Positions 1,725 through 33,019 of a stretch of 64,000 bases of DNA are shown here, piece by piece (the first letter of the stretch is position 1; every line of letters starts with the position of its first letter). The DNA comes from Amphiscolops sp. MND2022 (Eukaryota): contig OZ076409.1 of the NCBI GenBank assembly GCA_964187785.1, forward strand, positions 23,252,001 through 23,316,000. The letters run 5' to 3'. The notes beneath the pieces were generated by a model that searched no databases, was not told where the DNA came from, and saw only the letters and a list, made by a program, of their open reading frames with translations. The translations under genes and the position numbers were made by a program.

Positions 1725-1829
1725 TTTTGGACCTTTTAACAAATGTACCCAAGAACACCTCAGCATAAACTACCGTCCAAACATCGTCCCTCCACATTGT
1801 GGATGCTTTTCTCCCCGGAAATGAAAACA

Positions 1830-2640: not shown

Positions 2641-2880
2641 AAATGACCGGGTTATAACAGCCCATATACAAAGACGACGCAAGATTGACGTCGCAAATTA
2701 CCGGGTTATAACAGCCCATTTACAAGGACGACGCAGGATTGACGTCGCAAATGACCGGGTTATAACAGCCCATTTACAAAGACGATGCAAGATTGACGTC
2801 GCAAATGACCGGGTTATAACAACACAATATAAAGAAAGACGCAAGATTGACGTCATAAATGACCAGGGTTAAAACAGCCC
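2641..2880. repeat. Minisatellite, ~55-bp unit x ~4.5 (AAATGACCGGGTTATAACAGCCCATTTACAAAGACGACGCAAGATTGACGTCGC)
   Basis: Directly visible tandem copies inside the 5.2-kb element. Confidence 0.9.
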
Positions 2881-3657
2881 AATACTGATACGACGTCATT
2901 ATGACGTCGACAGTGATCAAAAATAATAATAATAATAATAAAAAAAATAACAAATAAAATTCAAGTTGACTAATAGCTAACGAAATTGACGTGCGCAAAA
3001 CGTTGACAACTTTGGTCAAACGAATTAGTTTAATTCGTGGCCAATAAAAACGTGACGTTGGCAAAACGTCAACACCTTGGACTACAAAGGAATTGAAAGA
3101 CAGCTTCTACCTTCTCCAAAAACAGTGCTATACCGAACTACAGAGTGGTCCGGAAATGTCACATTCCTCTAGGAAAGCATACAACCAAAACAATCCTCTC
3201 TTCAGTTTCGACAACCCCACGAGATATCTTCGTCCCAGGAGAGTGGCCCTGTCACAGTCCGCGCCCGGCCTGGATTGTGGTTGCCAAGAGGCGCAGTTTG
3301 GCCGTGATCATGGATGCATTATGAAAACAGTTAGACTATATTATTAAACTGAAGTAAACTGTGACAAGTTAAAATCATCAAAATCTAAAGTATGAATGAA
3401 TTCATAACTTAATAAATTCCGAAATTATATCATACATTTCCTGTCAAACGTAGTGATGACGGTAGACTTTTAATCATTTTGCTGCGAAATACAACCGTGA
3501 CATATCATTGCCGCAAAAAGAATGAAACTACGTCAACATTTGGGGCTAAAGGAAACAAAAACAATTTGATAATCAATTAATTGACGGGAAAAACTTCCCC
3601 AACATCCTCTCTTATTTTATCAAGCCCCGAGTACCATTCGTCCTATGACAGTGGCCC

Positions 3658-13300: not shown

Positions 13301-13591
13301 ATTCGGAGATCCATCCTTTTTTAAATCTCAATTGTTGTCATATGAAATCAGAATTTTTTTCTTCTCTATCAGATATCATGGATCTTCGTCATCAATCAAG
13401 TTTCCATGTGCAGCATCATGTTGGGGGGAGAAGACACACAGAGAAAGCTGAAATCAGAAAGCTACAATGGTACAAATGAAGAAACTGCAAAAATAACAAA
13501 AGTTGTTTACTAATATCGACAATCAAATTAAATTTTATTAAAGTTTCGAGATGGCAAATTTTTGAAAATAGTATTTTTGTTGAAATCGGTA

Positions 13592-14299
13592 TGTAACGTC
13601 CACCAGTCAATACCAAGTTTTCGTTGAAAAATTCGATCAAGAACCAAAAAAGGTGCGAATCAAAATGGCCGACCTGACAGGTCCTTAAAGCCCATAAAAT
13701 GAAAGAGAGAACGCGTGAACGAGAAGAATGACAGGAGAAGAAAAAGAAGTAGACGACTGACGACATGAAGATCCATGGGATAGAATTCAAAGAACGCTAC
13801 CCGGTGCTATGTCCTCCCTGGGAAAGCAGAGCCATTCCAGAACTACATGATTGGATCCCCGAGAACCTACAAACAGTAACTCTATTTCCACTCGGGGCCT
13901 ATCCCCCTTTATTTTGTTGACCTATGTTAATGTACTTTGCTGTTTTTCCCGTGCCTGACCTTCTAGGTCGGCATTTCATGCCCATAACTGTTGAAATGAC
14001 ATTTTTCGGATAAACACCTTTTTGGACCTCGGAAGTATGTGGGAGATAGCAGGAACACGCTAAAACCTTAGGATACGTTTTTACAGGCTTGTGGGGCGTG
14101 TCCGGACTTTGAGAGTGCCGGCGCGTCGCCTCGGAGCTCTAATTAGAGGAGTCTCCTTAGACGTTAGAAAAGTCCCCCATGGAGACCATTTTGGGATCAA
14201 AAACTAGTGTCTAGGTATGTAGTAAGACAACGGTCTCCTGTTTAAGCATCCTAGGCATTGTCCCTCTTCCTAGATGTGCGCCGCTAGCCGGACGTTACA
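13592..14299 (+). repeat. 5' LTR (708 bp)
   Basis: TGTAACGTCC...GGACGTTACA; no difference from 31665-32372 found on read-through. Confidence 0.97.
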
Positions 14300-14315
14300 T
14301 CTGGAATAGTTTTTA

Positions 14316-14332
14316 TGGCGACCACAGAGGGA
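14316..14332 (+). promoter_or_regulatory. Primer-binding site TGGCGACCACAGAGGGA, probably tRNA-Arg(UCG)-type
   Basis: Complement of a tRNA 3' end (..TCCCTCTGTGGTCG-CCA), resembling animal tRNA-Arg(UCG) ends as recalled; lies 16 nt downstream of the LTR. Confidence 0.7.
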
Positions 14333-16982
14333 TATTTTTCCTTGCCGCGTCCTGCGAGGAGCAACTCCTGCTTTCCGGCCCTGAAAGGTCCGGATCTAGG
14401 AGAAGCTTTTGGGAGAGTCCTAGATTGTTTTTATTGCCTTATTCTAGCCCTTTGGGCCTTGTATTAGTGTTTTTCCTGCGTTTCCTGCATGTTTCCGAGG
14501 TCCCTAGCCTGAAAAAGACAGTTTGAAACAGTGTACCCCCTTGTACCTTATCTGTACTCATTAAAAAAGCTATTCCGGCTTATCCGGAACGTGTTTTAAC
14601 GGGTTTTCCAGCTTCTTTTCAGCTAATTAGCAATGTACAGGGACAGCGAGGACGGTTTGTGAAGACCCGAACTAGCTGAGTGCAGGGCTGCAGGTGCTTC
14701 ACGTCATAGCCTCTTCCTCCCCACCTGGTGCCGATTCACCGAAAATAGCTGGGTTATTTCGTTCCCTTTACGTTTTCTAGCCCCAAATTAGTATTCCCAG
14801 GCCTGTTTTTGCATAAATTAACTGTGAATAATACCCACAGGGTATTTACATCAGTTATTCCAAGGACTTGAGCTCGAAAACGCCAAAAAAGACACTAAAA
14901 ACAGCTCAAATATCGAAATTTCCCGTTTTGAAAGCCAAAATTTTATAGAATTGTTCACGGCCCGTGGGAATACCTGAAAAACGTTCTGTCGGACCTACCA
15001 GGTTGAGAACAAAAAATTCTGTTGGGCTGTTTTTCAAAAAAGCATGAAAATTTCAGCAATTTTTGTTCAAAAATAGGCAAAATTGGCCATTTTGACCAAT
15101 TTTAACGAGGGCGAAGCCTTGGGCGTTTGCTCCCAAGCCTCTTGAAAGGCCCAAAAATTTTGTTGTTGTGCTTGGTAGTACGCAATACTACTACCAAGAC
15201 GGTTTTTGAACACCCCCAATATAAATTGAAGTTTTAACACCACTTTTCTTTCATTTAAATAGACCTGAGTAGAGGACCCCATAGACCTGAGAGCTATAAC
15301 ATCAAAAATAATAATTGAAAGAACCCCACTCCCCTAAATAAAGCAGTTACACCTTCCTACGGTACTGTTAAAACCATCTCTAACCTCTGGGAACCGAAGA
15401 ATAAGAAGTTCCTAGGGACAATACGTGTTTTTCATAGGTGTTCCCAGAGTGTCCAAGGTGTAACCTAAAACCAATTTTGAGAGACCCTAGCTGGAACCTG
15501 CCAGGTTTCGCTCGCTTATTTTCTATTAGTAGAGAGTACTAGATTACCAACGCTGAAAACCGCGAGTGATTCCAACCAGTGGTTGCCGAGAAATAGCCAA
15601 AAACGTATTATTTTTGTGACATTTTCGGAACACTAGAGTAGTGCTTCCAGCACAGGTCGAAATCTCTCCTAGCAGGAGTAGCCCAAAACGGATTGCACCA
15701 TCGTGTAGACCATAAAAAGTTACGTTAGTGGTGTAATTTTCATAGCGCTACCATTACTAGTGATTGAGAAATCTTAGCCGCAGTTTTGCTCAAAAATGAT
15801 CCGAAAATGTCGAAAAAATTGAATTTTAGTTGAGCATAGTGCTACACCTTGCAGGTATCCCAGCACTAAAATTCTTACGTTTTCGTATATACGGCGCTAG
15901 ATCCCGACGATTTGTGCATTTTGAGCAGCTTGCTACTGTCCAACTTGGAGAAATTGACAATTTTGTGAGTTTTAGCCCCTGAAAGTGACATACAGGGTAC
16001 ATCATAGTTTTGTCGACTCGGATTGCGAAATATTGACCTGGGCACCCTGCTAACTTATTTTTCTGTTACGTGGGCATAATTCACGCTCGCATACAAAATT
16101 TCAGATAGCTAGGACGCCTAGAAGGCGAGTTTGACCACTTTTTGCGAAATTCGCGACATAGCCAATTTCTCAGTGAACATTGTTAAGTGGCCGTGACACA
16201 CGCAGAATCTATTTTAACGCAATCGGAAGCTCATTCCCCACGATTCAGCTAGTGTACTAGGCGGTGTAAAATTTTCAGGTCGCTAGCACCACTAGAAGTG
16301 ATTTTCGCCTTCCCCGGAGGTGCTGCTTGATGAGAAAAACGAGATTTTGAGAAAAAATTAATAGAAAACCCGAGCATCCCCAATCATGATACACCCCATT
16401 CAGGGCTGGAGTCATCTGTTTAATGCATTGAGCAAGTCCCACACACCTTGCCGAACCTATAAGATCCATATAAAGTCAGCCCCAAAATCAACGATCTTCC
16501 ACTAAACCCTCTACGAGATCAAAAGACGGTAACTCCAAAAATCGAAATTCGTTTCTTCCCCGCCGTTAAGGTCGCCTAGGTGCAATCTACTCGCCACAAC
16601 CACCTCAACCCTACGCCTCGCATACCCTGAGGGTGCGAGGGTGCGCCTGAGAATATCAAAACAATCACAAACCAGGTTTGCGGAACGCGCAGAGAAACTA
16701 GGACAAGCACAGGGAAGATCACTCACATCATTATAACCCCTTCACCCACGACCCATAAAGCCATAAACCAGGTCATCACTCGATACTCAACCCACACGTT
16801 CCCAATCAAATCCCAGATCATTTCCAGTCCATTGTCCACCCATTGTCCCCGAATCAGCCCACCCATTGTTCTCAGCCTCCTCACAAAAAAAAAAAAAAAT
16901 TTTTTTTGTTACCTTTAATTTTGTCAACTATATAGTGGAAACTTCACACGCAGTGGAAGTTAAAATATTACATTTCGTGGCC

Positions 16983-19900
16983 ATGGAACGACGCGAGACT
17001 AACACCATCATTAGCGACTTCCATGCCACCAACCCTTTCGGAAGAAGAACGGAAACCACAACCGAACAAAACGAATGTAGATTAGATTCAGCCATAGCAG
17101 CCGTAATTTCAGAAGCTATGTCTGACTTCGTACCGAGCCAGGAACAAAACGCGGAGATAGCCGCTGCCAATACCCAGCCTAACTCCTCGCGAGCCTCCCC
17201 CGATAGCACCAATCTACCGGATAATACTGAGAACAACACGCAAAGAGACACATGGCCCCCGCTGGAAGTCACTGACTACAGCTTGGAAAACTGGCCAAAC
17301 TCCAACCAAGGGCCCATCAGTGAGCTCAGCATTGTTGATACCCCCAACGAACAAAATGACACTCCAATGACTCCACGGGCGGACCCAAAGATGGCAGAAG
17401 TCGAAAGGAACCCCCTGGGTTCCCAGGAGATGATCAATAGCGTAGGCGGAAATCCCTTCCGAAGCGGATATGCGCTATCGGAAGCACCGGCCAAAACGTC
17501 GAACGGGCCAGCGGAAAACTCGAAGACGAACATAACAGAGAATCCGTTAAGATATGTTTTTCGAACGCCACCCTCGGTAACATCAAAAATTAACTATGCG
17601 AATGCGAGTCGAACGTCTCACACACCAGACTCTCAAGCTAGCGCCGACACCAATCTCGACTCAACAATAACCAAAGCGAGAAAGGAAATGCAAACGGTTC
17701 GAGAAGACTTTCAGAGTAGTCTGGCACAGTTAGCTCAAGTCCAGACGAGGCTGGCGAGGGAAAACAACGAACATGAGATGCGCGCCGACATGATAATGAG
17801 GGACATGGACGAGCTACGAAAAGGTCTGTTGGAAATGCAAGCGGAAGGGCGACAAAATCAAGGTCGACTGGAAGCGTCAATGGCATCTCTCAATGATCTG
17901 ATTAAACAGAGAGAAACTACAGCGGACGCTCGCATGGCCGAGATGTCTGCAATAATGAGAGAAAGAGACCGCCAAGCAGATGAGCGCATGAAAGCAATGA
18001 CAAACACGATGCAGCGTCGCGACATAGACTCCAATGTCCGCATGGCGGACTTGATGATGGCAATGCAAGATTTAACATTGGGAGTGAAAGCAATCGTGTC
18101 GCAAACCCCCGCGCAGCAAGCACAAACGGCGCCGCGGATTCCCCAAAAATATCAACAGACCGAAATGCCATCTACAAGCGAAGCTCCCCAACCTCATTAT
18201 AGAACGGTGGCACAACACACAGCAGAGCCTCCTAGGCCTCCAAAACTAGTGCCACCCGCAACGTACAGGCGTGACCTGTCTAAAGCTAGCAAGGTGGCTA
18301 AGGTAACCCACACGGAATCACGAGACGCAGGTACGGACCCAATGACTGACCCGCCGTCGTTTGACCAGTACGCTCGCGGAACATCAACCTCCGGCGATTT
18401 TCATTCCGCCGCCGACGAAACGAACACCCGCAGGACCAGCTACTATACGGCCGATTCAAGCGCAGCATTCCGCCCACCTGCGCGGACGCAAACGTTCAGA
18501 GACTTCGTTCCGCGGCCAGTGGCCACCAGTACGCAGCGTAAAATGACAAACAAGCGGAATTTAGAACAAGGCAAAGGCGAACACAGCGACATTGAAGAAA
18601 TGCCCTCAATGGCAGAAGAGACTCCAGACACGCCGAGAACTACCCAACGACAAGCACTAGCGGAAGCAATATCTACGGCCATGTCTAAAGGCTTAGAGCC
18701 GTTGCTCGCCGCCAAGGAATCTAAAAACAAGCCCACGAAATATAGAGGAACCCGAGACGGAAACGCAGATGGATGGATGATGTTAATGAAACGCCATTTG
18801 GAAAAAGCACACCCTAAGGCGACCCCCCTCGATAAGGCGTGGACAATAATTGAGTATCTAGAGCATGAAGCCAGGGATTACATCACGAATAAATCCGAAG
18901 CAGAGAGGGACACTGACGAAAAAGTATTCGCGTTGCTGGCGCGTCGCTTTGGGACAGGTTCCAGCAAAATCCATATCCAACAGCAATTTAGAACCCGCAA
19001 CCAGAATAGCGAGGAGGACTACATGCAATACCTTGACGCCCTCGAAGGCCTGCGTAGTCAAGGTTACCCCAATGAAGAGGTGACAGTTCGTCGATACGAA
19101 ATCATGCAAAGATTCATTGAGGGAGTACGCAACTTCGAACTAAAAAGGAACCTCGCGCTAATGTATGCACCGGAACAATACGTGGAAACCCCACCAACAG
19201 TGGAAGCCCTCCGCTTCACAGTGCAACAATACTTACGCATGCGAGGCTCAACCCGTTCGGACAACTACCCAATGATGCCTCCTCCACAACAACAAGCCAA
19301 TATCCAACAACCAAATCAGTCTCCAGTAGCACCCGCGCCTGCCCAAAAAATGCAACAACAACAGCCTCCTCAACCAGCAGCATACCAACAACAACCCATG
19401 CCACCGGCAGCCTATCGTCCGCAACCCCAAAGAGCGTGCTTCAACTGCGGAGACCCATCGCATTTTGTGGTGGACTGCCCCCTGAAAGACCGTGCACGGA
19501 AGCCAGTACAACAGCAAGTGAACTCCTGTCACACGAACCCGACGGGTAGTTGGATGTGCCCCTCCCAGCCACGTGGCTTAAACTATGATGTATTCCCAGC
19601 ATCCCTACCAACCCAAGGCACAGTTGCCTTCTGCATTAATTGCGGCCGTACTGAGCACTCGGCGTCAGAATGCATGGCCTCGGAGCAGATGAGTCACGAA
19701 GAACAAATCCGTGCAGCTTGGTATGCTCCTTCACCAAGTCAATTCGATAACCTGAGCCAAGACGACCAAGTCCGGGTAATATCAGTAGCGGAAGATGGAG
19801 GTCCCTCCCGACCTGTAGTAGTCACTTGTGGCGAGAAACAAGTACTCACCACACTAGAGGCACCCGCCCCAGATTGTACAGAGACACTTATCTCGATACA

Positions 19901-22900
19901 CTTACTACTCTCGGCCGAACAAAAGACGCGGCCCACGCTGACGCTATCGCAACTAAAGGAGGAATTATGCAGAAACGTGAAGTATACCATCGCAGCGCGA
20001 CCGCTCCCACATTTCGCGAGAGAAGACGAAACGAAACTGGCCCCAATACAGAAAGTTAAAACCGTTTCTCCGGTGCCGGTAGCCATTAACGTAGACGGTG
20101 TAGACATGAAATTTGACGCTATTGTAGTCTTGGAAGGTCACTTCCCTCAGGGATTGTACTTGGGCCGCCAGGAGTTACGATGTTATAACATCGGAGTGCA
20201 AGATGCCCAGGGGGAGGCTCGTATTGACGAACGGGCATCCCTGGTGGTTGCCTTTGGCAACACTATCCAGGAACCAATACCCTTGTACGGGATGATAGAC
20301 ACCGGTTCCGGTGTCTCCATTCTCTCTCTCAAAGCCTATCAAAAAATTGCATCACCCCACGCCCTGAGCCTCCTACCATATGACATCCAACTGTATGCCG
20401 CCAATGGTAAAACCATCAACACCATTGGAATCGCCGAAAATGTTAGCTTCCAGTTGGGCGGATATACCCTCCGAACCAATTTCATAGTCATTGCCGATCA
20501 CCTAGGCGCGGAAGATTTCCTACTTGGCAGAAACTTCTTGCGCACTTACAACGTTCTCGTGGACTTGACGGCCATGAGGGTCACTATACGAGACCCCAAA
20601 GCGCCACGCCACTTCAAACCCGTCCATGAGGTAAGTGATCATGAGCCATCCCTAGTGATATCCACCGAAAAAGTAGTTCTAGGCCCTTATGAGCGTAAGC
20701 TAGTACGAGCCCAAATTATTTCTCAAAAGCACAACGAGTACCTTTTCCGAAACGTAATGATTCGCCCCCAGGGGGTATCTAAACGATCCCCCTTTGTTTC
20801 AGAAGATACATTGACGTCTGTTGGAGATGAAGGCATTGTCTTCATAGCCCTACGAAACACTACCCCCTCTGAAAACGTAACTATTCAAACCAAAACTGTC
20901 CTCGGTAAGGCAGAACTTACAAATTTTGTGTTGCAACCTGTGGCTGCCGACACGGCAACCGAAATTGATAAACCTTTGTTTGAACAAGTTAATAGAGTTT
21001 ATACCGAAGAGTGGTTAAACGAAACGAGTTCAGAATATAGTTCTTTTGCTCAAAACTTCTTGTCCTCTACTGAGATATCTGAAGAAGGATTGTCGGAAAG
21101 CGAGAAACGTGCTCAGACTGACCCACAATTACTAAAACCTATACCAGGTCCAGACCTTTCTTCCGTCCTTTCTTCATGGGGGGAGGGAGCGAGAGATCAA
21201 CTAGCAAGCGTTCTGAGCGAGTACGATGACCTTTTTATGAAACATAAAGCTGACATAGGGAGGTGCAAAATAGCGAAACATCGTATAGAACTAGAGCCGG
21301 AAGCTATCCCGCATAGAGAAGGCGCTCGGCGCATGTCCCCAGATAAGGCAGCAAAGGCTAATCAAGAGGTACGGAATCTACTGGCCCTTGGCCTAATTCA
21401 ACCCTCCTATTCACCGTGGGCAAGCGGAATAGTCATGGTTAAAAAGAAAACAGGCGAACTTCGCTTCTGCTGTGACTTCCGACCGCTCAACGACGTAACG
21501 GTCAAGGACGCGTTCCCATTGCCCAGGATTGATGAAAGTCTATCCCGGATAGGCAATGCGAAAATTTTCACAAGTATTGACCTAGCGTGGGCCTTCTGGC
21601 AGATACCGCTAAAGAAGCGCGATAGAAGGAAAACAGCATTTGCCTGCGAACTGGGATTGTTCGAATGGCGGCGCATGCCCTTTGGGCTATGCAATGCATC
21701 GGCCACATTTCAGCGCTCCATTACACGAGCCCTGCAAAGGATCCAGCAGCGACACGGGAGTGTCGTTATGGCTTACATTGACGACATAGTTATCGCCACG
21801 GAAACCATAGAAGACCACATCGTACGAATCAAGGAAGTATTCGAGTGTCTCCGAGAGGCTGGATTCAAGATGCGCGCCGAGAAGTGTGACTTCATGCGTA
21901 CGGAGACGAAGTACCTGGGGCGAGTAGTATCCTCGGAAGGCATCAGACCAGACCCCGAAGCAATAGTTAAAATCCAAGAATGGATGCCCCCGAGAAACAA
22001 AGAGGAGCTTCAGAGCTTCCTAGGGTTTGCAAACTATTACAGAGACTTTGTACCGTTTCATGCAGCCAAAGTGCAACCCCTGCAAGAGTTGCTCAAGAAA
22101 AGTCAGCATTTCCACTGGGAAATGAAACACCAAGAAGCCTTCGATGCAGTAAAGGAAGCACTAGCAAACGCGACCGCCTTGGCAGCCCCAAATGAAGACG
22201 GACGATTCGTGCTCGATACCGATGCTAGTGCGGTAGCGATAGCGGGAATCCTGCACCAGGAACAGGAACACAATGGGAAGACTATTTTACGGCCAATAGT
22301 CTTCGGGAGCAAATCTCTAACGAAGACACAGCTGAACTATGGAGCACCCAAGTTGGAAATGTACGCAGTATTTTACTTCATAGAGAAGTTCCACTCATAT
22401 CTCGCAGGCCGAGAGTTCACGCTCCGTGTGGACAATCAGGCCCTGTCATGGCTTAAAACGTACTCCATGGACCAAGCCATGATAGGTCGCTGGATAGCCC
22501 GTCTGGATCAATACAACTTCAAGACGATCCACCGACCTCGCACACAGCATCGAAACGTGGACGGCCTCAGCAAACGAACCAACGACTATGTGCACCGGGA
22601 GAAAATCCTCGAGAAGTTACCGGAAGTGAGTGAAGGATTCAACTTCATGACCAAAGAAGACTATGAAGCACTCCCCACCGTGCCATACTTTGACAAACAC
22701 GGACGCCCAATACCAAACCACCCAGAGCTCCCGCCGGAAGCTCGAGCCCAACTCCCACTGCTGTATATCTTGGGAAAAAGACCCAAAACGAGCTTGCAAG
22801 AGCCCCCGGTGAATGGTGCCCCATGGTATCCTCAAATACAGTGGGAGGCGACACCCACCACAGATGAGGATCACCGACCGACTCACATCCTCAGCATCAC

Positions 22901-25900
22901 GACCAAAGTGCCACCGGCACGCCTAGACACTGAAGAACCTGATCCTGTGCTTGAAGAGATGCCACCCGAATGCCAAGCACAAGCCAACGCCCTTAGAACA
23001 GTTGGAACAGAGCTGCATGAACACTTTCTGACCAGACGTGGCCTCAAGGACCTGCACCTAGCACAAAATAGGGACATGCACCTCCTAGCGCTGAAGAAAC
23101 TCATGAACGGCGAACCACTGGAAGAAACAATGTTCCCCGAAGACGTACAAGACTTCGCGCGACGCTACTTCCATCAAAAGAAAGACCTGCTCTTCCTGAA
23201 CCCAGACGATATTCTCTGCGTCAACTACGTTCCGCAACAACGTGCGCTGCACGCGCGACCGTGTATGATAGTCATGCCACAACTATACCAACACGAGATT
23301 CTGTATAGGGCACACGACGAATCGGGACATCAGGGCGTAGGGAAGGTGCTAGCGAGAGTACAAGAACGGCATACCTGGCCGGGCATTAAGCGTGACATAG
23401 TCAATCACATCAAGCACTGCTTGACCTGCCAGCAAACAAAACACCCCGCCGGGAACCCCTGCTACCCCTTGCAGAACATCAACAGCAGCAATTTCAACGA
23501 CCTAGTACAATTCGACCACCTCAAACTATGCAAAACCGAATCGGGAAACACCGGTCTCTTAGTCATGATAGACCACTTCACGAAATTCGCCGAGGCTATT
23601 CCGTGTGCCCACGACGAATATGATGCCCAAACCACAGCTAAAATCATCCTTAATAAATGGTTTGCCAGACACGGCACTCCAGCACGGATGCAATCCGACA
23701 ATGCCACGAATTTCACAGCTGAAATCGCACAGGAGCTAATGAAAGCCTCGCAAGTCACTAAAGTGACATCCACTCCAGCGCATCCTCGAGGAAATGGACT
23801 CGTGGAAAGGCAGAACCGAACGTTACTCGCACTGCTAAGAGTCTACACTTCGCGACGAATGCAGGATTGGGATGAGCATATTGATGGAATCCTCGGTGCG
23901 TACAATTCAACTAGACACGCAACCACTGGATTCTCTCCCTATATGCTCCAACACGGAGCCGAGAAATCCATTCCCCTGTCATTCATCTACCCAGAATTTG
24001 CTGCCCGAGGATTCGATTCCAAAGAAGAATTCGTGGAACATCTTCTAGCCAGACAGCAAGAAATCCATGAACTTGTCAGAAGAAATACACACCAAGCACA
24101 GCTACGGCAAAAGCTGAAGTTTGACCGCCACCTGAAAGCCAAAGCGCACGCTGTAGGCGATGCGGTGTGGGTATTCTGCCATATCATACCCAAGGGTGGC
24201 ACCCGTAAGCTGATTCGCGCTTGGCGCGGACCCCACAAGGTGACCGACGTGTTGCAGGACGGACGATTATATGTACTAGACACTGGCCAAAAGGTCCACT
24301 ACGAAAGATTGAAAAAGCATGTGCCTGCCCCTTGGGACTGGGCCGCACACCAGCCCTTTGGGCCGAATCAAAACGTAGCCATTATTGCTGATCCGTACGT
24401 AGAAGAAAGCAATGAAGAGATAGCGTCCGACATCTCCCAAGACTCTTTCCTACCGGAACAACTTCCGGAAGCATCCTTCGAAATGGAACCGACAGGATCG
24501 ATTCCACCTCGTACCATTCAGACTCGTACCCAAACAGCACTCGAACAAGGAATACCCCGAAGAAGATTCAGCCACTTCGGGTACCCCTCTAACTCAGATT
24601 CCGAAAGAGAGGAAAATGAGCCGCCGATTCAGAGCCCACCACCGCCAGTAGTGTTCCCCGACTTGGACGACCTAGAACCACTGTACTCCGACCAGGAGGA
24701 AATTCAGCCGGCCGTACCTACGAGTCTGATACCATCACCCTCAGGGACCTCAGCCCCCCTACTATCCAATCCGTCCCTAACAGACACCCTGAGTAACTTT
24801 CCCTTGTTTGGCCCCCAATTAGAGAACCCGATCGACCCGATAGAAAATGAACCAAAGTCAGAAACTGAGAATGAAGAAGAGACAACCCATCGCAGTCCAA
24901 GCCATTGCTCAACACAACCCGATACCACGAATCGTAGAGGACGGCCTCGAGGCCGACCACTAGGTCGAGGAAAACCCCGCGCTATACCATCCACTAGAAC
25001 CACAACATCGTCGCGAACCCAAACCGCACGATCCAGAAGAGGCCCTAGGGCAAGAATGAGCACTCGTGCACCCCCTCGAAAACTAGACCGAGCGATGACT
25101 CTACCAGAAATACCCGAAAGCCAACAACCACCAGATGTCCAGGACTCAGAACCAAGACCACTATCGCGAACATCACGATATCAACTGCGAGCTAACAGAA
25201 CACCACGTTACAAGTGTGGAACCTGTGGTTCCCGCAACTGTAGTTGCGTCAAGCATCTGACTCGCCATTCACCGGACAACCGATTGGCCCGGGGAGCGGT
25301 AGTCCCTGCCAGGGATCTCTTTATGGCCAGGACACATTGTCACCCACAACATGAGATCTTAACCGTGCAAGCCCAGCGAGAAAAGGTGGTGGAGACACCC
25401 CCGCTAGTGCACCATTTGATCATCACGGTAGAAAAAACTTTCACTAGTGTGGAACGAGAAGCGATACCACCGCTGGAAGAAACACTCAAAGCAATGCACG
25501 CGACATCTCCCTCCGACTGCCCGACTTACCGATTCAAAGAATGGACACCTCCCCATCGAGGCGGTCTAGAATTCACCCTACATGCCATCATACCGCCTTT
25601 GCCACCCTCGATGACATTCGGCGAGCTAGCAAAAGAGGATAATAGCCCGGAGATGATCCGCTGTATCACTGCACACCAACTGTGGGAGAAATATCACATT
25701 GCCTCCCCGCCGGGAGACATATATCAGCCCACCAATGGATGGTGGCTACTTGTCACCTCTCTAGACGCAACGACATTGGTATCTCCCACAACTTTACTGA
25801 TGTGCTTAGAAAGCTTGCGTACAGTAACCGAACCTGAGAACACGCTTTGTTTCCACATGGCCGATATTTATCGTGGCAAGTTCCTAAGCCAACATTGGCT

Positions 25901-26654
25901 ACAATTAATAGCGGTCGTCTTCTGCCGACAGGCGAAGATACACTTCCTGGATCGACAATTTTATACACCAGAAAAACCCGTCACGGTTAGCGAAGCACTC
26001 TCGATAGTACACGATTGGTCATCTACAAACTTGGGAGATAGACCTCTACGCCGAACCGTCTGGGAAGACCGACAAGCAATCTTGCAGCATTTGACACCCC
26101 GACCCACCGATGATCAGAGCAGAACCACCGGCAAATGGCTCATAACCCAGCCTAAAACCAGACCGAATTACTTACCTTGGATAAGTTATGACAACACAGA
26201 TATCCTGCAGGCACCTGGCACCGTGATACTATGCTGCCCTGCGGATTTGCTCTCTTACTCTGCCACAATCCGTTACGTCATTCGCGAATACGGTCAAGAA
26301 AACATATTTCGTCTAAGACCATCAGTTGGCACCGCAATTCGCTTAACCCGCTCGCCAACTGCACCCTGGAATAACGAAATCTTCCTTCTATGTACCAGAG
26401 CATCGACCAAGCATCCGCTCTTACATGAAGTACTCCATGCGTGTTTGACGAATTTGATAACCCAGCTCCATCGAAACCGCATTACCAGAATCCACTTGCC
26501 CATCTATGATCCTGAGCGATCGATGAACCTCCTTCCAGCCTGGTACGCCACACTACGCGACCACTTTGCAGACCACAACATAACAATAATTTTGCACGAT
26601 CGCGTCTATGTCACGATAGCGTCGATTACCTCTGCCAACTTTGGCGGTAGTTAA
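16983..26654 (+). CDS. gag-pol: Gag-Pol polyprotein, 3223 aa, single frame, with long N- and C-terminal extensions
   Basis: ATG in GCCATGG at 16983; coiled coil ~17670-18090; capsid-like ~18730-19240; CCHC knuckles 19437-19478 and 19632-19673; protease DTG 20298-20306; RT YIDD 21774-21785; RNase H 'DTDAS...ELEM-like KLEMYA...VDNQAL...NVDGLSK' ~22200-22580; integrase HHCC ~23310-23430, core D(QFDH)-D(SDNA)-E(VERQN), 'WRGPHKV' motif ~24222. Confidence 0.97.
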   Translation: MERRETNTIISDFHATNPFGRRTETTTEQNECRLDSAIAAVISEAMSDFVPSQEQNAEIAAANTQPNSSRASPDSTNLPDNTENNTQRDTWPPLEVTDYSLENWPNSNQGPISELSIVDTPNEQNDTPMTPRADPKMAEVERNPLGSQEMINSVGGNPFRSGYALSEAPAKTSNGPAENSKTNITENPLRYVFRTPPSVTSKINYANASRTSHTPDSQASADTNLDSTITKARKEMQTVREDFQSSLAQLAQVQTRLARENNEHEMRADMIMRDMDELRKGLLEMQAEGRQNQGRLEASMASLNDLIKQRETTADARMAEMSAIMRERDRQADERMKAMTNTMQRRDIDSNVRMADLMMAMQDLTLGVKAIVSQTPAQQAQTAPRIPQKYQQTEMPSTSEAPQPHYRTVAQHTAEPPRPPKLVPPATYRRDLSKASKVAKVTHTESRDAGTDPMTDPPSFDQYARGTSTSGDFHSAADETNTRRTSYYTADSSAAFRPPARTQTFRDFVPRPVATSTQRKMTNKRNLEQGKGEHSDIEEMPSMAEETPDTPRTTQRQALAEAISTAMSKGLEPLLAAKESKNKPTKYRGTRDGNADGWMMLMKRHLEKAHPKATPLDKAWTIIEYLEHEARDYITNKSEAERDTDEKVFALLARRFGTGSSKIHIQQQFRTRNQNSEEDYMQYLDALEGLRSQGYPNEEVTVRRYEIMQRFIEGVRNFELKRNLALMYAPEQYVETPPTVEALRFTVQQYLRMRGSTRSDNYPMMPPPQQQANIQQPNQSPVAPAPAQKMQQQQPPQPAAYQQQPMPPAAYRPQPQRACFNCGDPSHFVVDCPLKDRARKPVQQQVNSCHTNPTGSWMCPSQPRGLNYDVFPASLPTQGTVAFCINCGRTEHSASECMASEQMSHEEQIRAAWYAPSPSQFDNLSQDDQVRVISVAEDGGPSRPVVVTCGEKQVLTTLEAPAPDCTETLISIHLLLSAEQKTRPTLTLSQLKEELCRNVKYTIAARPLPHFAREDETKLAPIQKVKTVSPVPVAINVDGVDMKFDAIVVLEGHFPQGLYLGRQELRCYNIGVQDAQGEARIDERASLVVAFGNTIQEPIPLYGMIDTGSGVSILSLKAYQKIASPHALSLLPYDIQLYAANGKTINTIGIAENVSFQLGGYTLRTNFIVIADHLGAEDFLLGRNFLRTYNVLVDLTAMRVTIRDPKAPRHFKPVHEVSDHEPSLVISTEKVVLGPYERKLVRAQIISQKHNEYLFRNVMIRPQGVSKRSPFVSEDTLTSVGDEGIVFIALRNTTPSENVTIQTKTVLGKAELTNFVLQPVAADTATEIDKPLFEQVNRVYTEEWLNETSSEYSSFAQNFLSSTEISEEGLSESEKRAQTDPQLLKPIPGPDLSSVLSSWGEGARDQLASVLSEYDDLFMKHKADIGRCKIAKHRIELEPEAIPHREGARRMSPDKAAKANQEVRNLLALGLIQPSYSPWASGIVMVKKKTGELRFCCDFRPLNDVTVKDAFPLPRIDESLSRIGNAKIFTSIDLAWAFWQIPLKKRDRRKTAFACELGLFEWRRMPFGLCNASATFQRSITRALQRIQQRHGSVVMAYIDDIVIATETIEDHIVRIKEVFECLREAGFKMRAEKCDFMRTETKYLGRVVSSEGIRPDPEAIVKIQEWMPPRNKEELQSFLGFANYYRDFVPFHAAKVQPLQELLKKSQHFHWEMKHQEAFDAVKEALANATALAAPNEDGRFVLDTDASAVAIAGILHQEQEHNGKTILRPIVFGSKSLTKTQLNYGAPKLEMYAVFYFIEKFHSYLAGREFTLRVDNQALSWLKTYSMDQAMIGRWIARLDQYNFKTIHRPRTQHRNVDGLSKRTNDYVHREKILEKLPEVSEGFNFMTKEDYEALPTVPYFDKHGRPIPNHPELPPEARAQLPLLYILGKRPKTSLQEPPVNGAPWYPQIQWEATPTTDEDHRPTHILSITTKVPPARLDTEEPDPVLEEMPPECQAQANALRTVGTELHEHFLTRRGLKDLHLAQNRDMHLLALKKLMNGEPLEETMFPEDVQDFARRYFHQKKDLLFLNPDDILCVNYVPQQRALHARPCMIVMPQLYQHEILYRAHDESGHQGVGKVLARVQERHTWPGIKRDIVNHIKHCLTCQQTKHPAGNPCYPLQNINSSNFNDLVQFDHLKLCKTESGNTGLLVMIDHFTKFAEAIPCAHDEYDAQTTAKIILNKWFARHGTPARMQSDNATNFTAEIAQELMKASQVTKVTSTPAHPRGNGLVERQNRTLLALLRVYTSRRMQDWDEHIDGILGAYNSTRHATTGFSPYMLQHGAEKSIPLSFIYPEFAARGFDSKEEFVEHLLARQQEIHELVRRNTHQAQLRQKLKFDRHLKAKAHAVGDAVWVFCHIIPKGGTRKLIRAWRGPHKVTDVLQDGRLYVLDTGQKVHYERLKKHVPAPWDWAAHQPFGPNQNVAIIADPYVEESNEEIASDISQDSFLPEQLPEASFEMEPTGSIPPRTIQTRTQTALEQGIPRRRFSHFGYPSNSDSEREENEPPIQSPPPPVVFPDLDDLEPLYSDQEEIQPAVPTSLIPSPSGTSAPLLSNPSLTDTLSNFPLFGPQLENPIDPIENEPKSETENEEETTHRSPSHCSTQPDTTNRRGRPRGRPLGRGKPRAIPSTRTTTSSRTQTARSRRGPRARMSTRAPPRKLDRAMTLPEIPESQQPPDVQDSEPRPLSRTSRYQLRANRTPRYKCGTCGSRNCSCVKHLTRHSPDNRLARGAVVPARDLFMARTHCHPQHEILTVQAQREKVVETPPLVHHLIITVEKTFTSVEREAIPPLEETLKAMHATSPSDCPTYRFKEWTPPHRGGLEFTLHAIIPPLPPSMTFGELAKEDNSPEMIRCITAHQLWEKYHIASPPGDIYQPTNGWWLLVTSLDATTLVSPTTLLMCLESLRTVTEPENTLCFHMADIYRGKFLSQHWLQLIAVVFCRQAKIHFLDRQFYTPEKPVTVSEALSIVHDWSSTNLGDRPLRRTVWEDRQAILQHLTPRPTDDQSRTTGKWLITQPKTRPNYLPWISYDNTDILQAPGTVILCCPADLLSYSATIRYVIREYGQENIFRLRPSVGTAIRLTRSPTAPWNNEIFLLCTRASTKHPLLHEVLHACLTNLITQLHRNRITRIHLPIYDPERSMNLLPAWYATLRDHFADHNITIILHDRVYVTIASITSANFGGS

Positions 26655-26984
26655 GAGCACGTCTCGCCCTCTACTTAGCATATCAGGCCACTGGCCTTTT
26701 GCACTGCCTTTAGTTAATTCGAAGCACCTTAAGATTTTAACAAGGCCGCGCCGACAAGCGCAAATTTTAGTACTAACCACTGAAACTTTTTAACCTTATG
26801 TTTGTGTGTTCGTCCTAAAAAGCTTAACTGCCCACCCGTCTATGTGATGTCTTATCTCCAACTGTAACCTGTTTTTCAGTTTTGTCCTGTTGCCTCGCCT
26901 CTGCGCGGCCCCCATACTTATCACGCCAAATCAGTCTTGCCATCACAATCTTCGGTGCTAAACATTCCTTTATCATCGTTTCCA

Positions 26985-29900
26985 ATGGACCCATCTGCGC
27001 GACACCGCCTGCCTGCACCCCAGAACGCTGCGCGTGCCCAACCATCCACAAGGAACGACCCACCCCCAATGATGAGCGAAATAGATGGTCGAGTCGACCA
27101 GCTAGCTCTTGTCCAAGACACCCTACTAAACGGAGCGACACCCACAATGATCACTGGCTTCGCCATGATCATCGCCCAAACCCAAGCTCAAGCAGAGTAC
27201 CCTGATGTTAGCTTCACTATCACCAGCCGAGTCGGCCCGATAGAACGCTCCGCCACTTTTCGCGACGGTACCTGGCAAGGGTATGACTTGACCCACAGCC
27301 TCATAGACCCTCGCTCTCACGTAGTCTATGGAGAACCTACCAGGCCCCCCATGGACCAAGAACGATCACTCCGCATTTCACAGTCAGCACTACAGACGTC
27401 ACAGACACAAACTACGACCCCGTTGCCCTCGCCGCACCCGGTGCAGTTCAGCTGCACGCTGCCAATCATGCCACCCCCAGTACTAACACCACCCATGCCC
27501 CTGGCATCGGAAGGCATTCGCCTACTGACCACCCCATCCTCTACCTTCATGCCTCCATCTACCTTTCAGGGGGGAGGGGTGCAAGTAGACAATACAGCAA
27601 GTGCTACCCTGAGCGAAGAACAGCCCAGGAGAACGGTGACGTTCAAAGATTCATATGAAGAATTAACTCAGACGTCTTCCAGAACCGAATCACAAGTCTC
27701 GGAACCTCCACAAGCCTCAGAACCAGCTAGCCTAGTAGGCTTCCAAATGGACCCACAATTCCGAGAACGTCAGCGAGAACAACAAAAAGCCGAAAGTAAG
27801 GCAGCCAACACTGTGGTAGACCTCCGGGAGAAAATAAAAGCTGGAAAGCGAGCCAGAGAGGCGACCATGCAAAGTAAACAATCGAGCTCGACCAGTGTCC
27901 CGCAACCCTTGTCTGCCTCACCCACGCAACCAGAAACAAGGAGACCGAGAATAACACACGAACTCCTAACACATTCGGAAAAACGGCAGCTGGATATCAC
28001 TGCACGCGACGCACTGCGTCTGCAGCGGGAAATACCAACCACAACGCCACCAGAAGACCCTCTACGACAGAAATTCGAGACCGCAACGGGAACTGGGGAC
28101 TTCGCCACAAGGCAGAAAATAGAAAAAGCCACAGTGGGAGTACTCTACAATCGTCCCGTCAAGAAACCAGTGTTCACTCGAGACGGATGCCCCCCATGGT
28201 TCAATCGCATGCGAGCAGAATTGGAGAGAGTGAACTCGACATACATGCGTATTCCTGACAATTTCATCCGACAGCGCCCTGGCCGCTTCGACGAAGATCG
28301 CTTGCGAACAAAAAACTATGCGAGGGACCCCATTACAATCCTGCCCATGGAAAAGGACCTTTTGCAGAAAACCAGAATAGCCTTCTTCGTCGACTCGACG
28401 ATGAAGTCTTCATTCAACTCCCACAATACCCTCATGGATGTCAGAATAATGAACATGCCCTGTACAACACTGAACGAAATGGCAGAGGTGACCGACAAAG
28501 TATTCACCCAAGCGGGAACAGAGACCATCCCATTACCTCCGTTGCTGGTATATTCAAATGTGATAGATCACCTCGCTCTGCGAGGGACCTTGGAATTTTT
28601 CCGACCAGACCACGAAAGATTTACTGAGGGGTTCGTCACCGACGAAGTGACCAACTACGTGGAGACAATGGCGAATATTGCCCAAACTATGCGCAGAAGG
28701 AAAGCTGTCACTGGAACGGTATTTATGTCACCTCCAGGCTACGTGCACCTTCCTCGGACCCTTCAGCAATTCTTATACCTAGTAATGGAGGCAGCGTACG
28801 CAAGAGATCTGGCTTTTTACATTGTGGCCCCCAATTTACGTATCAGCAATAATAGCTGGCGCCCTTGTGAAGCCTCATACCCAGCCTTCGTTGCTGAAGT
28901 CTCAAAGGCCCTTCAATCATACGTCGGTTACCGCGGAAACTCCCAAATGGTAGTGGATGAAGCAACAGCATTCGACTACGGGATGGAAATGGCTCGCCGA
29001 TCATTGAATGAGCGTGGAGACCGAATCGTAAACGACCCAAATGAAAGTGAGCGCAACAACCTGGTGGATAACCTCTGGTTTGAACGCCGGGACGAATCAA
29101 CAATAGACGAGAAAACACATGAACCCAAGTTTCACAAGGAACTCACGAATCTAATGAAAGAAACCGAGACGATTCAGGGTGATAGAAAGAATTCCTCCAT
29201 CTTCCCCATAGCACAAATATCATTGGATGCTGAACCTGGGCAAAGATCACCCACATTGGCCATGCTGTTGATACTAGCTCAAGACATTGTACAAAGGAAT
29301 GTTCAAGAGCCGACACACACGTACCAAACATGGCACGATCAACTACGAGAACCTTTGGGCCAAGTCGCGGACCGACTGGGCATAACATTTCCCGTATTTC
29401 TCCACAACATCTCTCCCTTCTGGCTTCCTTCCTTAGTACAAGCCGAGTACGGCCTGGATGAGCAGCGAATGCGACTTTACATGGAGGCCATGGAAAGAGC
29501 GACCGTTAGTGAACTACTAGCGTACCTGATGGCCGTGGGGTTGACCATGATGTACAGAGGACCATCGGCCCTCATACAAAAGTTCGTGCTCAACAAGGGA
29601 GGCTCAGCCCTGTTCAGCTTCCTAGTCTTCTCGCAGAATCAAAGAGGTTGGATATCTGCGCTCATTGAAACCCTGGACCCAGCGGGTTCCCTGAAATTAA
29701 AGACGCAGCTGGACTTAAACATTCAAGCACTTCTAGTGTGGATTTATTCCACCTGGGTCAATGTCTCGGGCGTTATGCATCCTCTGGATGAGTGCCCAGC
29801 TATTAACCGAGACCCCAATCAACTTCCTGGGTTCCTGTTCCCTACACAAGTTGCAACATTGATGCTCGTGGAAACAGAGGACCTAATACCCCTCATTGCT

Positions 29901-31079
29901 CCGATAGTCTGGCCTATCTTCGGCGCAGTTATGGCCCTGCGCTATCCAACGCAAGCCCTGCGAGTGGCAGCGGTGAGCCCATCCCTCTCGATTCTACATT
30001 TCGTGACCTCCGATGGGCCCCTTCAGGGTCCCACCTATCAATCAGTGATACACAGCTTTGCCAACTTGCGACCTCCCATGGCGTATACCGTAATCAAAGA
30101 CCGCCAACAAGTGGAACACAACTATCTCACCTTGATCAAGGCGAGAGCACGTAGCTCGCTCCCTTTGCCAATGGAAATCCATCCGGTAGTTTGGCTGCAC
30201 ACCCCCATTGATCCAAATAATGGAGCAGTGGCGACATTTGAAGGGTGGGACGTGCCAGTTGTCCTGCGTATCTTGAGAACAATTATCCAAAGATTGGGTG
30301 GTCGTCGAAAAGGAGAAGAACCTACTAGGTTATTGTATCCCTATGCGTGTGACACTTCCAGAATATATTGTGCGAGAACAGAACCCCGTGAGCATACCGC
30401 CAGAATCTTGAATACCATTACATGTTGGGCCCAGCCGGAGCTCGTGGACCTCGCTATACACCAAACCTTCCAACAGCTGCCAACAACTATTCCGACAGTA
30501 GCAAAGGAACCAAGCAAGAAAGATTTGCCCGTGAACACTGACGTTCCCAGCAACCCGCGTATGGCACTAGAGATATTCGTGCGTCTGCATGGTCTCCAAC
30601 GAGAACGTACTCGAGCCGTGGGCGAAGAATACGCTAGGGGAATACGAACGTTCAGGCAGCTGTTCATCCAATATGGCCATCAAGAATTAGCGGACGGTTT
30701 GCCGAACTTGGAATCAGTCGAAGCTATCCCAGGAATTAGCGATTTGAGCGAAGCTGCCTCTGGCAGCTCTCGCACCGTCTTCCCCACACCCCACGTGAGT
30801 CAAGACTCCAATGAAATATTGGTGGAAAGGGCACAAGATGATGTGCCAGGTGTCATGCCACCATCAGGGGAACCTATGACTGATAATAACTTCACGTTCT
30901 CTGATGCCACTACTCCTGTAAGAGACGAAGTGGAAACCAATATCTCGAACTTGGAGGCAGCGGACATAGAGTCAGAGCTCAATAATCTGCTGACCATAGA
31001 CGAAGAGTATCAGAATACGGTGGATGCCATGGGCAACACCTCAGTCCAAGAAGCCCCACAGGACCAACTGCTGGAATAA
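26985..31079 (+). CDS. ORF2, 1364 aa, unknown function, in the env position; central SGNH/GDSL-like domain
   Basis: 4.1-kb stop-free frame between pol and PPT, ATG in CCAATGG context, base composition like pol; no N-terminal signal peptide; SGNH-like blocks at 28374-28920. Confidence 0.9.
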   Translation: MDPSARHRLPAPQNAARAQPSTRNDPPPMMSEIDGRVDQLALVQDTLLNGATPTMITGFAMIIAQTQAQAEYPDVSFTITSRVGPIERSATFRDGTWQGYDLTHSLIDPRSHVVYGEPTRPPMDQERSLRISQSALQTSQTQTTTPLPSPHPVQFSCTLPIMPPPVLTPPMPLASEGIRLLTTPSSTFMPPSTFQGGGVQVDNTASATLSEEQPRRTVTFKDSYEELTQTSSRTESQVSEPPQASEPASLVGFQMDPQFRERQREQQKAESKAANTVVDLREKIKAGKRAREATMQSKQSSSTSVPQPLSASPTQPETRRPRITHELLTHSEKRQLDITARDALRLQREIPTTTPPEDPLRQKFETATGTGDFATRQKIEKATVGVLYNRPVKKPVFTRDGCPPWFNRMRAELERVNSTYMRIPDNFIRQRPGRFDEDRLRTKNYARDPITILPMEKDLLQKTRIAFFVDSTMKSSFNSHNTLMDVRIMNMPCTTLNEMAEVTDKVFTQAGTETIPLPPLLVYSNVIDHLALRGTLEFFRPDHERFTEGFVTDEVTNYVETMANIAQTMRRRKAVTGTVFMSPPGYVHLPRTLQQFLYLVMEAAYARDLAFYIVAPNLRISNNSWRPCEASYPAFVAEVSKALQSYVGYRGNSQMVVDEATAFDYGMEMARRSLNERGDRIVNDPNESERNNLVDNLWFERRDESTIDEKTHEPKFHKELTNLMKETETIQGDRKNSSIFPIAQISLDAEPGQRSPTLAMLLILAQDIVQRNVQEPTHTYQTWHDQLREPLGQVADRLGITFPVFLHNISPFWLPSLVQAEYGLDEQRMRLYMEAMERATVSELLAYLMAVGLTMMYRGPSALIQKFVLNKGGSALFSFLVFSQNQRGWISALIETLDPAGSLKLKTQLDLNIQALLVWIYSTWVNVSGVMHPLDECPAINRDPNQLPGFLFPTQVATLMLVETEDLIPLIAPIVWPIFGAVMALRYPTQALRVAAVSPSLSILHFVTSDGPLQGPTYQSVIHSFANLRPPMAYTVIKDRQQVEHNYLTLIKARARSSLPLPMEIHPVVWLHTPIDPNNGAVATFEGWDVPVVLRILRTIIQRLGGRRKGEEPTRLLYPYACDTSRIYCARTEPREHTARILNTITCWAQPELVDLAIHQTFQQLPTTIPTVAKEPSKKDLPVNTDVPSNPRMALEIFVRLHGLQRERTRAVGEEYARGIRTFRQLFIQYGHQELADGLPNLESVEAIPGISDLSEAASGSSRTVFPTPHVSQDSNEILVERAQDDVPGVMPPSGEPMTDNNFTFSDATTPVRDEVETNISNLEAADIESELNNLLTIDEEYQNTVDAMGNTSVQEAPQDQLLE

Positions 31080-31656
31080 AGGAGTCCTCTGGACCCTCAA
31101 GACTGTTAGAACACAATTGAGCATAAAGGACCCTATCATCAATGTACTAATGCTAATTCTTGATTTTAGTTGTGCTACACCATCTTGCTGGTGCTGAAAA
31201 CTTTCAGTGCAATAAACCTTAATTCCTGAGTTTTGTTTGATGTATATTATACTTTGCTACCATTGTAACAATGCAATATAGTTACATCCTCTGGGTGGGT
31301 CCCGGTTCGGTGCCCTCCCGTTTTGATTTGAATTGGAAACTTCTACCAAGCCCAAAAGTTGTTGTTACTCACCTGGCCGCGCAGGGGCCCTATTTTAGAA
31401 AAAGAAATTTTAACTTGAACTGAGGAGTTAGTGAAAAAACCTTTTTAAAGAAAAAATCCGACTGTATAGTTTTTAACTTAAAAATCTGTGCTTTTTGAAT
31501 TCGATGGCTTTAAGGTGCTAGACATGCAGTAGTAAGGCGAAAAGAAAAATAATGTGGAATCAACGTAGCTTTGACATAAGACCTTTTCTGTGGACCTCAG
31601 AGTACCCTTTGGGTGCGAGCATCCTCTCGTTTGCCGGGGACGACAAACTACGGCCC

Positions 31657-31664
31657 GGGGAGGA
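31657..31664 (+). promoter_or_regulatory. Polypurine tract GGGGAGGA
   Basis: Purine run immediately 5' of the 3' LTR TG. Confidence 0.8.
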
Positions 31665-32372
31665 TGTAACGTCCACCAGTCAATACCAAGTTTTCGTTGA
31701 AAAATTCGATCAAGAACCAAAAAAGGTGCGAATCAAAATGGCCGACCTGACAGGTCCTTAAAGCCCATAAAATGAAAGAGAGAACGCGTGAACGAGAAGA
31801 ATGACAGGAGAAGAAAAAGAAGTAGACGACTGACGACATGAAGATCCATGGGATAGAATTCAAAGAACGCTACCCGGTGCTATGTCCTCCCTGGGAAAGC
31901 AGAGCCATTCCAGAACTACATGATTGGATCCCCGAGAACCTACAAACAGTAACTCTATTTCCACTCGGGGCCTATCCCCCTTTATTTTGTTGACCTATGT
32001 TAATGTACTTTGCTGTTTTTCCCGTGCCTGACCTTCTAGGTCGGCATTTCATGCCCATAACTGTTGAAATGACATTTTTCGGATAAACACCTTTTTGGAC
32101 CTCGGAAGTATGTGGGAGATAGCAGGAACACGCTAAAACCTTAGGATACGTTTTTACAGGCTTGTGGGGCGTGTCCGGACTTTGAGAGTGCCGGCGCGTC
32201 GCCTCGGAGCTCTAATTAGAGGAGTCTCCTTAGACGTTAGAAAAGTCCCCCATGGAGACCATTTTGGGATCAAAAACTAGTGTCTAGGTATGTAGTAAGA
32301 CAACGGTCTCCTGTTTAAGCATCCTAGGCATTGTCCCTCTTCCTAGATGTGCGCCGCTAGCCGGACGTTACA
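31665..32372 (+). repeat. 3' LTR (708 bp)
   Basis: Same length and sequence as 13592-14299. Confidence 0.97.
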
Positions 32373-32401
32373 GTATTTTAGTGTTTTTATCAAAGAATCT
32401 A

Positions 32402-32470
32402 CCGATTCTGGGAATCGAACTCGATACCTTATGGTTTGAAAGCTAGCGCACTAACCGTTTGCCCAAACTG
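32402..32470 (-). other. tRNA-derived sequence (SINE-head-like or tRNA pseudogene)
   Basis: Minus strand reads GTTTGGGCAAACGGTTAG (A-box-like)...GAGTTCGATTCCC (B-box/T-loop) at tRNA spacing; anticodon and acceptor stems do not pair. Confidence 0.5.
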
Positions 32471-33019
32471 TCTTATTATTAAACTGTCTGAATTTAATCT
32501 TATTCTTATTTGCTTTGCAACACTCAGGGAAATACAAAACAAAAACTCAATACACATACCGGCCACAATACCAGTAGACAGACAGAACTAAATGAAATCA
32601 TAAGCAACGAACTATAATCCAGCAGACATAAAAGATCTGATACTACTGCATAAACTCTAGAACCAATAAATCTGATCTGAATAAGATATAAAACCACTGG
32701 AAAAAGAACTAAAAGCACTGGAATCAGACCCAAAACCACTGGAATAAAATCTGCGGACAAGGGAACAAGATCTGAAAGCACTAGGAATAACTAAAAACAC
32801 TGAATTATGATATAGAGCTGACATTTTATAATACTAAGAGATCAATTTTTGGGTGATCACTATGAGAAGTCCCAGAGCAGTTCCTGGAGGAACCAAATCA
32901 TTTTATAAAGACGAGGGATGAGCAAGCTTGGCTTTGAACGTTATTGCTGCTTTGCATTTAGACTTTGTTTTTCAGACAATATTCATACTCAGCGAGAATA
33001 CCCCCAGATGATGAAAATT

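Follow-up and report, generated by a model that had tools for sequence, protein, structure and literature searches.

Within a 64,000-nucleotide stretch of the genome of Amphiscolops sp. MND2022 (contig OZ076409.1 of assembly GCA_964187785.1, positions 23,252,001 to 23,316,000; hereafter the window), positions 13592-32372 hold an 18.8 kb long terminal repeat (LTR) retrotransposon whose lineage duplicates 3 bp of target DNA upon insertion. This 3-bp target-site duplication, absent from the original prediction made for the element, is what distinguishes the lineage from its relatives. The Troyka description attributes 3-bp duplications to Troyka and 4-6 bp to other LTR retrotransposons (PMC12440569, Kojima, 2025). 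We estimate a probability of roughly 80% that the element is an autonomous, recently expanded retrotransposon of the Ty3/Gypsy (Metaviridae) type whose integrase cuts its target 3 bp apart, independently of Troyka. The surprising part is a fixed 3-bp duplication in a Gypsy lineage that has TG..CA termini and an integrase bearing a GPY/F-type motif.

We examined 50 LTR-bounded elements from six sister families (A-F) and found a 3-bp duplication around 45 of them, 4 bp around none, 5 bp around one and no duplication around four. By family, the 3-bp duplication flanked 24/28 elements of A, 7/8 of B, 1/1 of C, 1/1 of D, 9/9 of E (integrase merely 67% identical), 2/2 of F and 1/1 of an F-like kind. 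Chance agreement over three bases was 2.6%, as estimated from 1482 mismatched flank pairs. The count leaves out a tandem copy that runs into another primer site on its right side (L082/L083), two copies whose 5' ends are broken up (L056, L062) and three copies without coverage of both ends (L196-L199, L202-L203). In the window, the duplicated bases are GTA, read directly at 13589-13591 on the left and 32373-32375 on the right.

Empty paralogous sites show the target as it is without the insertion. TTTT directly follows the GTA position in all 19 such sites and GGTA stands unchanged before it in 18 of the 19; therefore, the empty site holds one GTA and no bases were lost. This junction was read directly; an ungapped 50-base score favoured an offset of 1 at 15 of the 19, owing to an indel of two bases lying farther downstream. 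The termini are correctly placed because the bases beside TG and CA vary freely between copies and the inner LTR ends fix where the element stops. As a control, the method was applied to another, unrelated LTR family of this genome; of 12 pairs examined, 11 had both ends identified and 10 of those gave 4 bp. It is therefore very improbable that the duplication was misread, with the true ends lying elsewhere or a 4-5 bp duplication having been trimmed, or that the locus is an assembly chimera, even though 4/50 elements lack a duplication and a long satellite lies at the border of the element's window.

A chimera is further contradicted by copy number. Nine further full-length copies are colinear with the window element at 96-99.9% identity, and a tenth carries an internal deletion. 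Every one of the 150 integrase matches scored was 98-100% identical, and by hand count about 60 lay within frames of at least 3200 codons; all 40 LTR candidates scored were 97-100% identical. These LTR and integrase counts are lower bounds, with at least 150 integrase copies in total. Because of these near-identical copies and the colinear full-length ones, we excluded an assembly chimera, which the original prediction had named as a possible refutation. Among 14 LTR pairs, seven were identical and the others differed at one to three places. The element is a young member of a large family in this genome, which bears out the earlier description of it as a recently inserted, intact Ty3/Gypsy element with identical LTRs and open frames, and the nine full-length copies and roughly 60 long-frame integrases supply the copy count that the prediction had left to be made. 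Across the six families, integrases are 67-100% identical, LTRs span 708-723 bp and all termini are TGTAAC..GTTACA. Family F measures 15.1 kb with an internal part of 13.7 kb, identical LTRs and 3-bp duplications, and lacks the second open reading frame (ORF2). With the queries used, this genome did not yield the relatives P0074, P0076 and P0267 as such, and none of 34 loci on metagenome contigs contained a whole element.

The sites share further features. The middle base of the duplication was A or T in 40 of the 45 sites (P 9e-5 against flanks of 63% A+T), as were positions minus 4 and plus 4 in 36/45 and 38/45 sites, respectively. Such a symmetric pattern, in the middle and four positions to either side, would fit a bent target. 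According to PMC9410886, retroviral-type integrases cut 4-6 bp apart and this spacing is linked to target bending. The integrase core has a two-residue insertion common to the 3-bp families and missing in ten other integrases, which we treat as a lead only because Ty3 also has one extra residue there.

Several parts of the element support its placement in Ty3/Gypsy. Among solved structures, Ty3 was closest to the reverse transcriptase (RT) and RNase H (E 6e-76), and the integrase aligned to that of Ty3 through the GPF motif, matched here by WRGPH (E 2e-29). The element shares with Ty3/Gypsy its TG..CA LTRs, tRNA primer, polypurine tract, CX2CX4HX4C knuckle, Gag-PR-RT-RH-IN order and GPY/F-type integrase tail. 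It differs in its 3-bp rather than 4-6-bp duplication, which is a typical trait outside the sequence-based definition, in a primer site placed 15-16 nt away from the LTR, and in having a pseudo-protease, two macrodomains and a 1364-aa ORF2. The nearest named proteins, from fish and a pseudoscorpion, were 38-39% identical over RT-RNase H. In a 28-row RT tree, families A-F united (100/99) and then joined unnamed relatives from other assemblies (96/99), while the named fish and pseudoscorpion Gypsy proteins stood apart from the lineage.

Troyka is the natural comparison, since its 3-bp duplication is one argument for treating it as its own superfamily (PMC12440569), and the element resembles it in the duplication, a single Gag-Pol frame and the lack of an envelope gene. 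In that paper, Troyka is further defined by CG..CG ends (CGCCA / TGGCG), LTRs of 100-400 bp, an internal part of 1.5-7.7 kb, a CX2CX8-10HX4C knuckle, the absence of a GPY/F motif and a branch outside Gypsy. In contrast, all six families here end in TGTAAC..GTTACA, with LTRs of 708-723 bp, an internal part of 17.4 kb (13.7 kb in family F), two CX2CX4HX4C knuckles and a GPY/F-type motif. The element shows none of the five Troyka characters testable besides duplication length (0/5). The 3-bp footprint could have had a single origin if the element were an aberrant Troyka or a Gypsy with an acquired Troyka-type integrase. The shared hallmark speaks for this idea, but the five published characters all disagree and RT and integrase rank relatives in the same order, making it quite unlikely. 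The 3-bp stagger probably represents a second origin inside Gypsy.

Three points weigh against the reading of a Gypsy integrase that cuts 3 bp apart independently of Troyka. One family-B copy shows a 5-bp match (L050/L052); both element ends come from one host genome only, leaving the relatives P0074, P0076, P0375, P0384 and P0078 uncovered; and the RT tree lacks curated, Troyka or GyDB references, with its deep forks unresolved.

Repbase or Dfam might also already list the lineage and its duplication under ordinary Gypsy families. In favor of this are its hundreds of copies, both in an assembly of chromosome level and in ENA assemblies, and a sentence in PMC10045372 that gives "3-6 bp". On the other side, PMC12440569, a Repbase curator's paper, gives 4-6 bp for other LTR retrotransposons, close relatives all lack a family name, and literature searches, with Repbase and subscription journals outside their reach, turned up no Gypsy lineage with 3-bp duplications or such an architecture. 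The excerpts of PMC11673190 and PMC12859917 added nothing on duplication length. On balance, prior cataloguing seems unlikely, at about one chance in four. Among the distant relatives, P0078 (integrase 37% identical) has a 3697-aa polyprotein that ends in a superfamily-1 helicase (AAA_11/AAA_12) rather than macrodomains.

All parts of the element lie on the forward strand. The 5' LTR (13592-14299) and 3' LTR (31665-32372) match at 708/708 bases, start with TGTAAC, finish with GTTACA and have a 10-bp terminal inverted repeat, confirming the identity previously described as apparent. At the primer-binding site (14316-14333), 18 nt pair without mismatch with the 3' end (plus CCA) of a host tRNA-Arg(TCG). 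The site begins 16 nt past the 5' LTR, and the offset is 15-16 nt across all six aligned families. The host carries tRNA-Arg(TCG) genes in a tandem array with a period of about 173 bp (G000:C9:57.54-57.6 Mb, L189-L195); the pattern has 261 matches genome-wide, some units have the anticodon TCA, and the array encodes the element's primer tRNA. A long 5' leader (14334-16982) contains no frame reaching 150 codons and matched no family in an Rfam search. It is followed by ORF1 (16983-26654), which encodes one Gag-Pol polyprotein of 3223 aa counted from the first Met of a stop-free frame at 16767-26654, and by ORF2 (26985-31079), an accessory frame of 1364 aa counted likewise within 26868-31079. 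Both lengths agree with the original prediction. A polypurine tract (31657-31664) adjoins the 3' LTR.

ORF1 holds every core motif that had been claimed for it: DTG, YIDD, the RNase H LDTDAS, HHCC and D-D(35)-E. Pfam matches fell in Gypsy order, namely zinc knuckle, aspartic protease (below cut-off), RT, RNase H and integrase. The polyprotein begins with a low-complexity, helical Gag extension (16983-18700) that evolves fast, at 29-40% identity between families, and a capsid-like region (18714-19256) with a weak PNMA match (E 0.014, below cut-off) and 86% identity to family B. Two CX2CX4HX4C zinc knuckles, read directly, lie at 19437-19673. A retropepsin copy without DTG (19821-20225) precedes the aspartic protease with DTG (20262-20588) and a dUTPase-like remnant whose catalytic motif is gone (20619-20966; a weak assignment). 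The RT (21264-22076, YIDD at 21774-21785), with Ty3 RT as its best solved relative, is followed by an RNase H of Ty3/Gypsy type (22116-22514) and the integrase (23277-24330), in which HHCC and D-D(35)-E are joined by the GPY/F-type motif WRGPH at 24222-24236. Behind the integrase come AT-hook-like RGRP repeats in a disordered linker (24936-24959, read directly), a conserved four-cysteine motif (25215-25247), a degenerate macrodomain (25527-25958) and a second, TARG1/OARD1-like macrodomain (26166-26603).

About three quarters of the additional length codes for protein and evolves under purifying selection, with replacement changes far below silent changes in every domain, in line with the earlier claim that the extra size is mostly maintained coding sequence. 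The duplicate protease that the prediction had noticed was recovered by profile-profile comparison (probability 98.8, E 1e-16 between the upstream copy and the active protease). The pseudo-protease is conserved better than its active neighbor (87% against 82% identity to family B, with silent sites saturated) and is also visible in the distant relatives P0074, P0076 and P0384. The predicted macrodomains were likewise found. The C-terminus was modelled as two domains (pLDDT, a model confidence score, of 75), of which the last resembled human TARG1 by profile (E 2e-9) and fold (Z 16.6, root-mean-square deviation 2.6 over 138 residues), and the preceding one matched the last by profile (probability 99.3). 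Active TARG1/OARD1-type domains have catalytic Lys and Asp residues plus glycine-rich loops. At the positions we take to be these sites in macrodomain 2, Arg replaces the lysine in 7/7 rows and the IGCGLD loop is replaced. The element therefore shares with TARG1/OARD1 and DarG the fold and the N-terminal ligand-binding aspartate position, but its macrodomains are in tandem, fused behind an integrase and changed at catalytic and glycine-rich positions.

Two other parts of the predicted cargo stood less well. The dUTPase-like stretch found dUTPases in 20 of the 22 matches listed, but its best E was only 0.049 and the IDAGY motif is lost. The RGRP repeats proposed as AT-hooks are visible but are not kept as such in all families. 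To judge from their catalytic positions, the cargo domains, although conserved, look catalytically dead. The label of virus-like cargo appears overstated, given that there is no envelope gene, that the catalytic residues are lost and that the dUTPase-like remnant also occurs in P0079, an ordinary Gypsy outside the clade.

Within family A, ORF2 is under strong purifying selection (ratios 0-0.11), and it is missing from family F, which is itself young (identical LTRs). It lies where env would be expected, and a single hydrophobic stretch occurs around residue 1006 of the frame. About 105 nt ahead of its start, a conserved T-run plus YAG (26872-26879) is a candidate splice acceptor, which may serve the ORF2 RNA. 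The earlier suggestion of an SGNH-like protein keeps some footing in an alpha/beta domain (28374-28928) that resembles SGNH/GDSL hydrolases. A fold search with a low-confidence model (pLDDT 40) returned esterases or lipases in about 20 of 50 rows, at Z 5.5-7.0, a level common for the tool. The motifs DS and NxxDH are conserved, so that the Ser is kept, with RP in place of HP; we mapped them onto SGNH blocks by what we take to be the usual block spacing, and the His position is Arg in 35 of the 37 rows holding a residue there. Other comparisons gave it no support: a Pfam search of ORF2 gave no family, Foldseek with the ORF2 model gave nothing at E 0.001, and profile comparison with the true GDSL domain of P0073 gave a probability of 0.1 (single-sequence template). 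An ORF2 profile search gave 636 matches, and those among the 150 listed were mostly fragments of the same lineage. Two other assignments were rejected: designed PPR repeats, the only PDB profile matches, were insignificant in each stretch, and ESM Atlas matches to unrelated helical proteins (whole 0.87, part 0.81) were treated as chance. Two relatives, P0073 and P0327, carry an intact GDSL/SGNH domain (PF13472 above cut-off in P0073), and a second domain of P0073 matches the ORF2 core.

Extra ORFs with GDSL/SGNH domains are described for bdelloid LTR elements in PMC5408684. The element resembles Vesta, Juno and TelKA in an extra ORF behind pol, its family-specific gain and loss and its SGNH-type resemblance. 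Catalytic residues are intact in the bdelloid ORF3 as described there, whereas here a degenerate domain, weakly assigned to SGNH, sits in a 1364-aa protein.

The cargo could instead consist of active enzymes (ADP-ribose hydrolase, esterase, dUTPase and second protease) serving a virus-like, cell-to-cell life cycle, which the title of the original prediction implies. Purifying selection on all domains, the frequency of macrodomains in viruses, the intact GDSL domain of P0073 and the position of ORF2 with its hydrophobic stretch could be cited in support. Set against these are the missing DTG of the first protease, the Arg substitutions at the TARG1 lysine and SGNH His positions, the lost glycine-rich loop, the dispensability of ORF2 in family F, and the lack of an envelope match in Pfam, which did detect the env of the control family. 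We regard active cargo as improbable. The odds are about even that the cargo works by binding rather than catalysis, with the pseudo-protease as a brake or partner, the macrodomains as tethers and ORF2 as a host factor.

Replication of the element as a Ty3/Gypsy retrotransposon would follow the standard Gypsy cycle. Transcription from the 5' LTR would yield a single Gag-Pol polyprotein, and reverse transcription would be primed by tRNA-Arg(TCG) and the polypurine tract. Priming by the full tRNA, if used, would mean that 16 extra U5 bases must be removed. Integration would then proceed with TG..CA ends. By its footprint, the integrase sets its active sites 3 bp apart, and such a stagger would call for more closely spaced active sites or a sharper bend in the target. 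The pseudo-protease may pair with the active protease and so time or limit processing of a polyprotein made without a frameshift, the paired macrodomains behind the integrase, both apparently dead, may act as chromatin or ADP-ribose tethers, and ORF2 may be made from spliced RNA as a host-interaction factor not needed in cis. A broader proposal, to which we give slightly less than an even chance, is that the lineage is an undescribed old Gypsy clade marked by its pseudo-protease/protease tandem, combining a Ty3-type integrase with its own 3-bp stagger, 16-nt U5 trimming and a dead macrodomain tether.

If correct, this would make the lineage the obvious choice for studying how close the active sites of a retroviral-type intasome can come. 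Its integrase is near enough to that of Ty3 for structural comparison of what sets the spacing. A fixed 3-bp duplication in a TG..CA, GPY/F-bearing Gypsy lineage shows that the spacing is changeable inside Gypsy and that Troyka cannot be diagnosed by 3 bp. In practice, LTR finders set to require 4-6-bp duplications, as is their usual default, would overlook this family, despite its hundreds of copies, or place its ends wrongly. The strong conservation of the pseudo-protease points to a testable way in which single-frame Gag-Pol elements could control processing.

By themselves, size and cargo vary what other elements already show. PMC6431247 puts Burro (planarian) at over 30 kb and Ogre (plant) at 16-25 kb. 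Going by it, the element resembles both in its large size, its long single polyprotein with extra domains and its accessory ORFs, but differs in length at 18.8 kb, and none of the domains it lists for Burro (BIR, BCL2, MATH, ankyrin, env) was found here by Pfam. The element is thus below these giants, and its host genome holds a second, unrelated LTR family of 18 kb. That unrelated family (L108-L113; G000:C10:55841023-55859136 and C13:558885-576933) is 18.1 kb long, has at least 150 copies with 4-bp duplications, 413-bp TG..CA LTRs, a 2734-codon frame and further unknown frames, and carries an envelope-like gene (Pfam Monjiviricetes fusion, E 4e-20).

Several repeats accompany the element in the window. 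The sequence immediately around it (13449-13591 and 32376-32517) is a dispersed repeat, elsewhere paired 8-9 kb apart, and is probably an LTR that includes a tRNA-like part. At 86-5305, a decayed interior containing a 54-bp tandem lies between two direct repeats of 1.65 kb (96.5% identical); this is probably an older LTR element that has suffered a deletion. On the reverse strand at 11316-11840 lies a fragment that presumably resembles a BEL/Pao integrase, judged by motifs as we know them. A 1.8-kb segment at 36554-38388 has inverted arms made of 17-bp repeats, similar to a miniature inverted-repeat transposable element or DNA transposon. From 39147 to the window end at 64000 runs a satellite array of about 496 units of 52 bp with higher-order repeats. 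Outside the window, a frame adjoining a family-C copy (L058:2300-3877) matched ubiquitin C-terminal hydrolase (E 2e-12).

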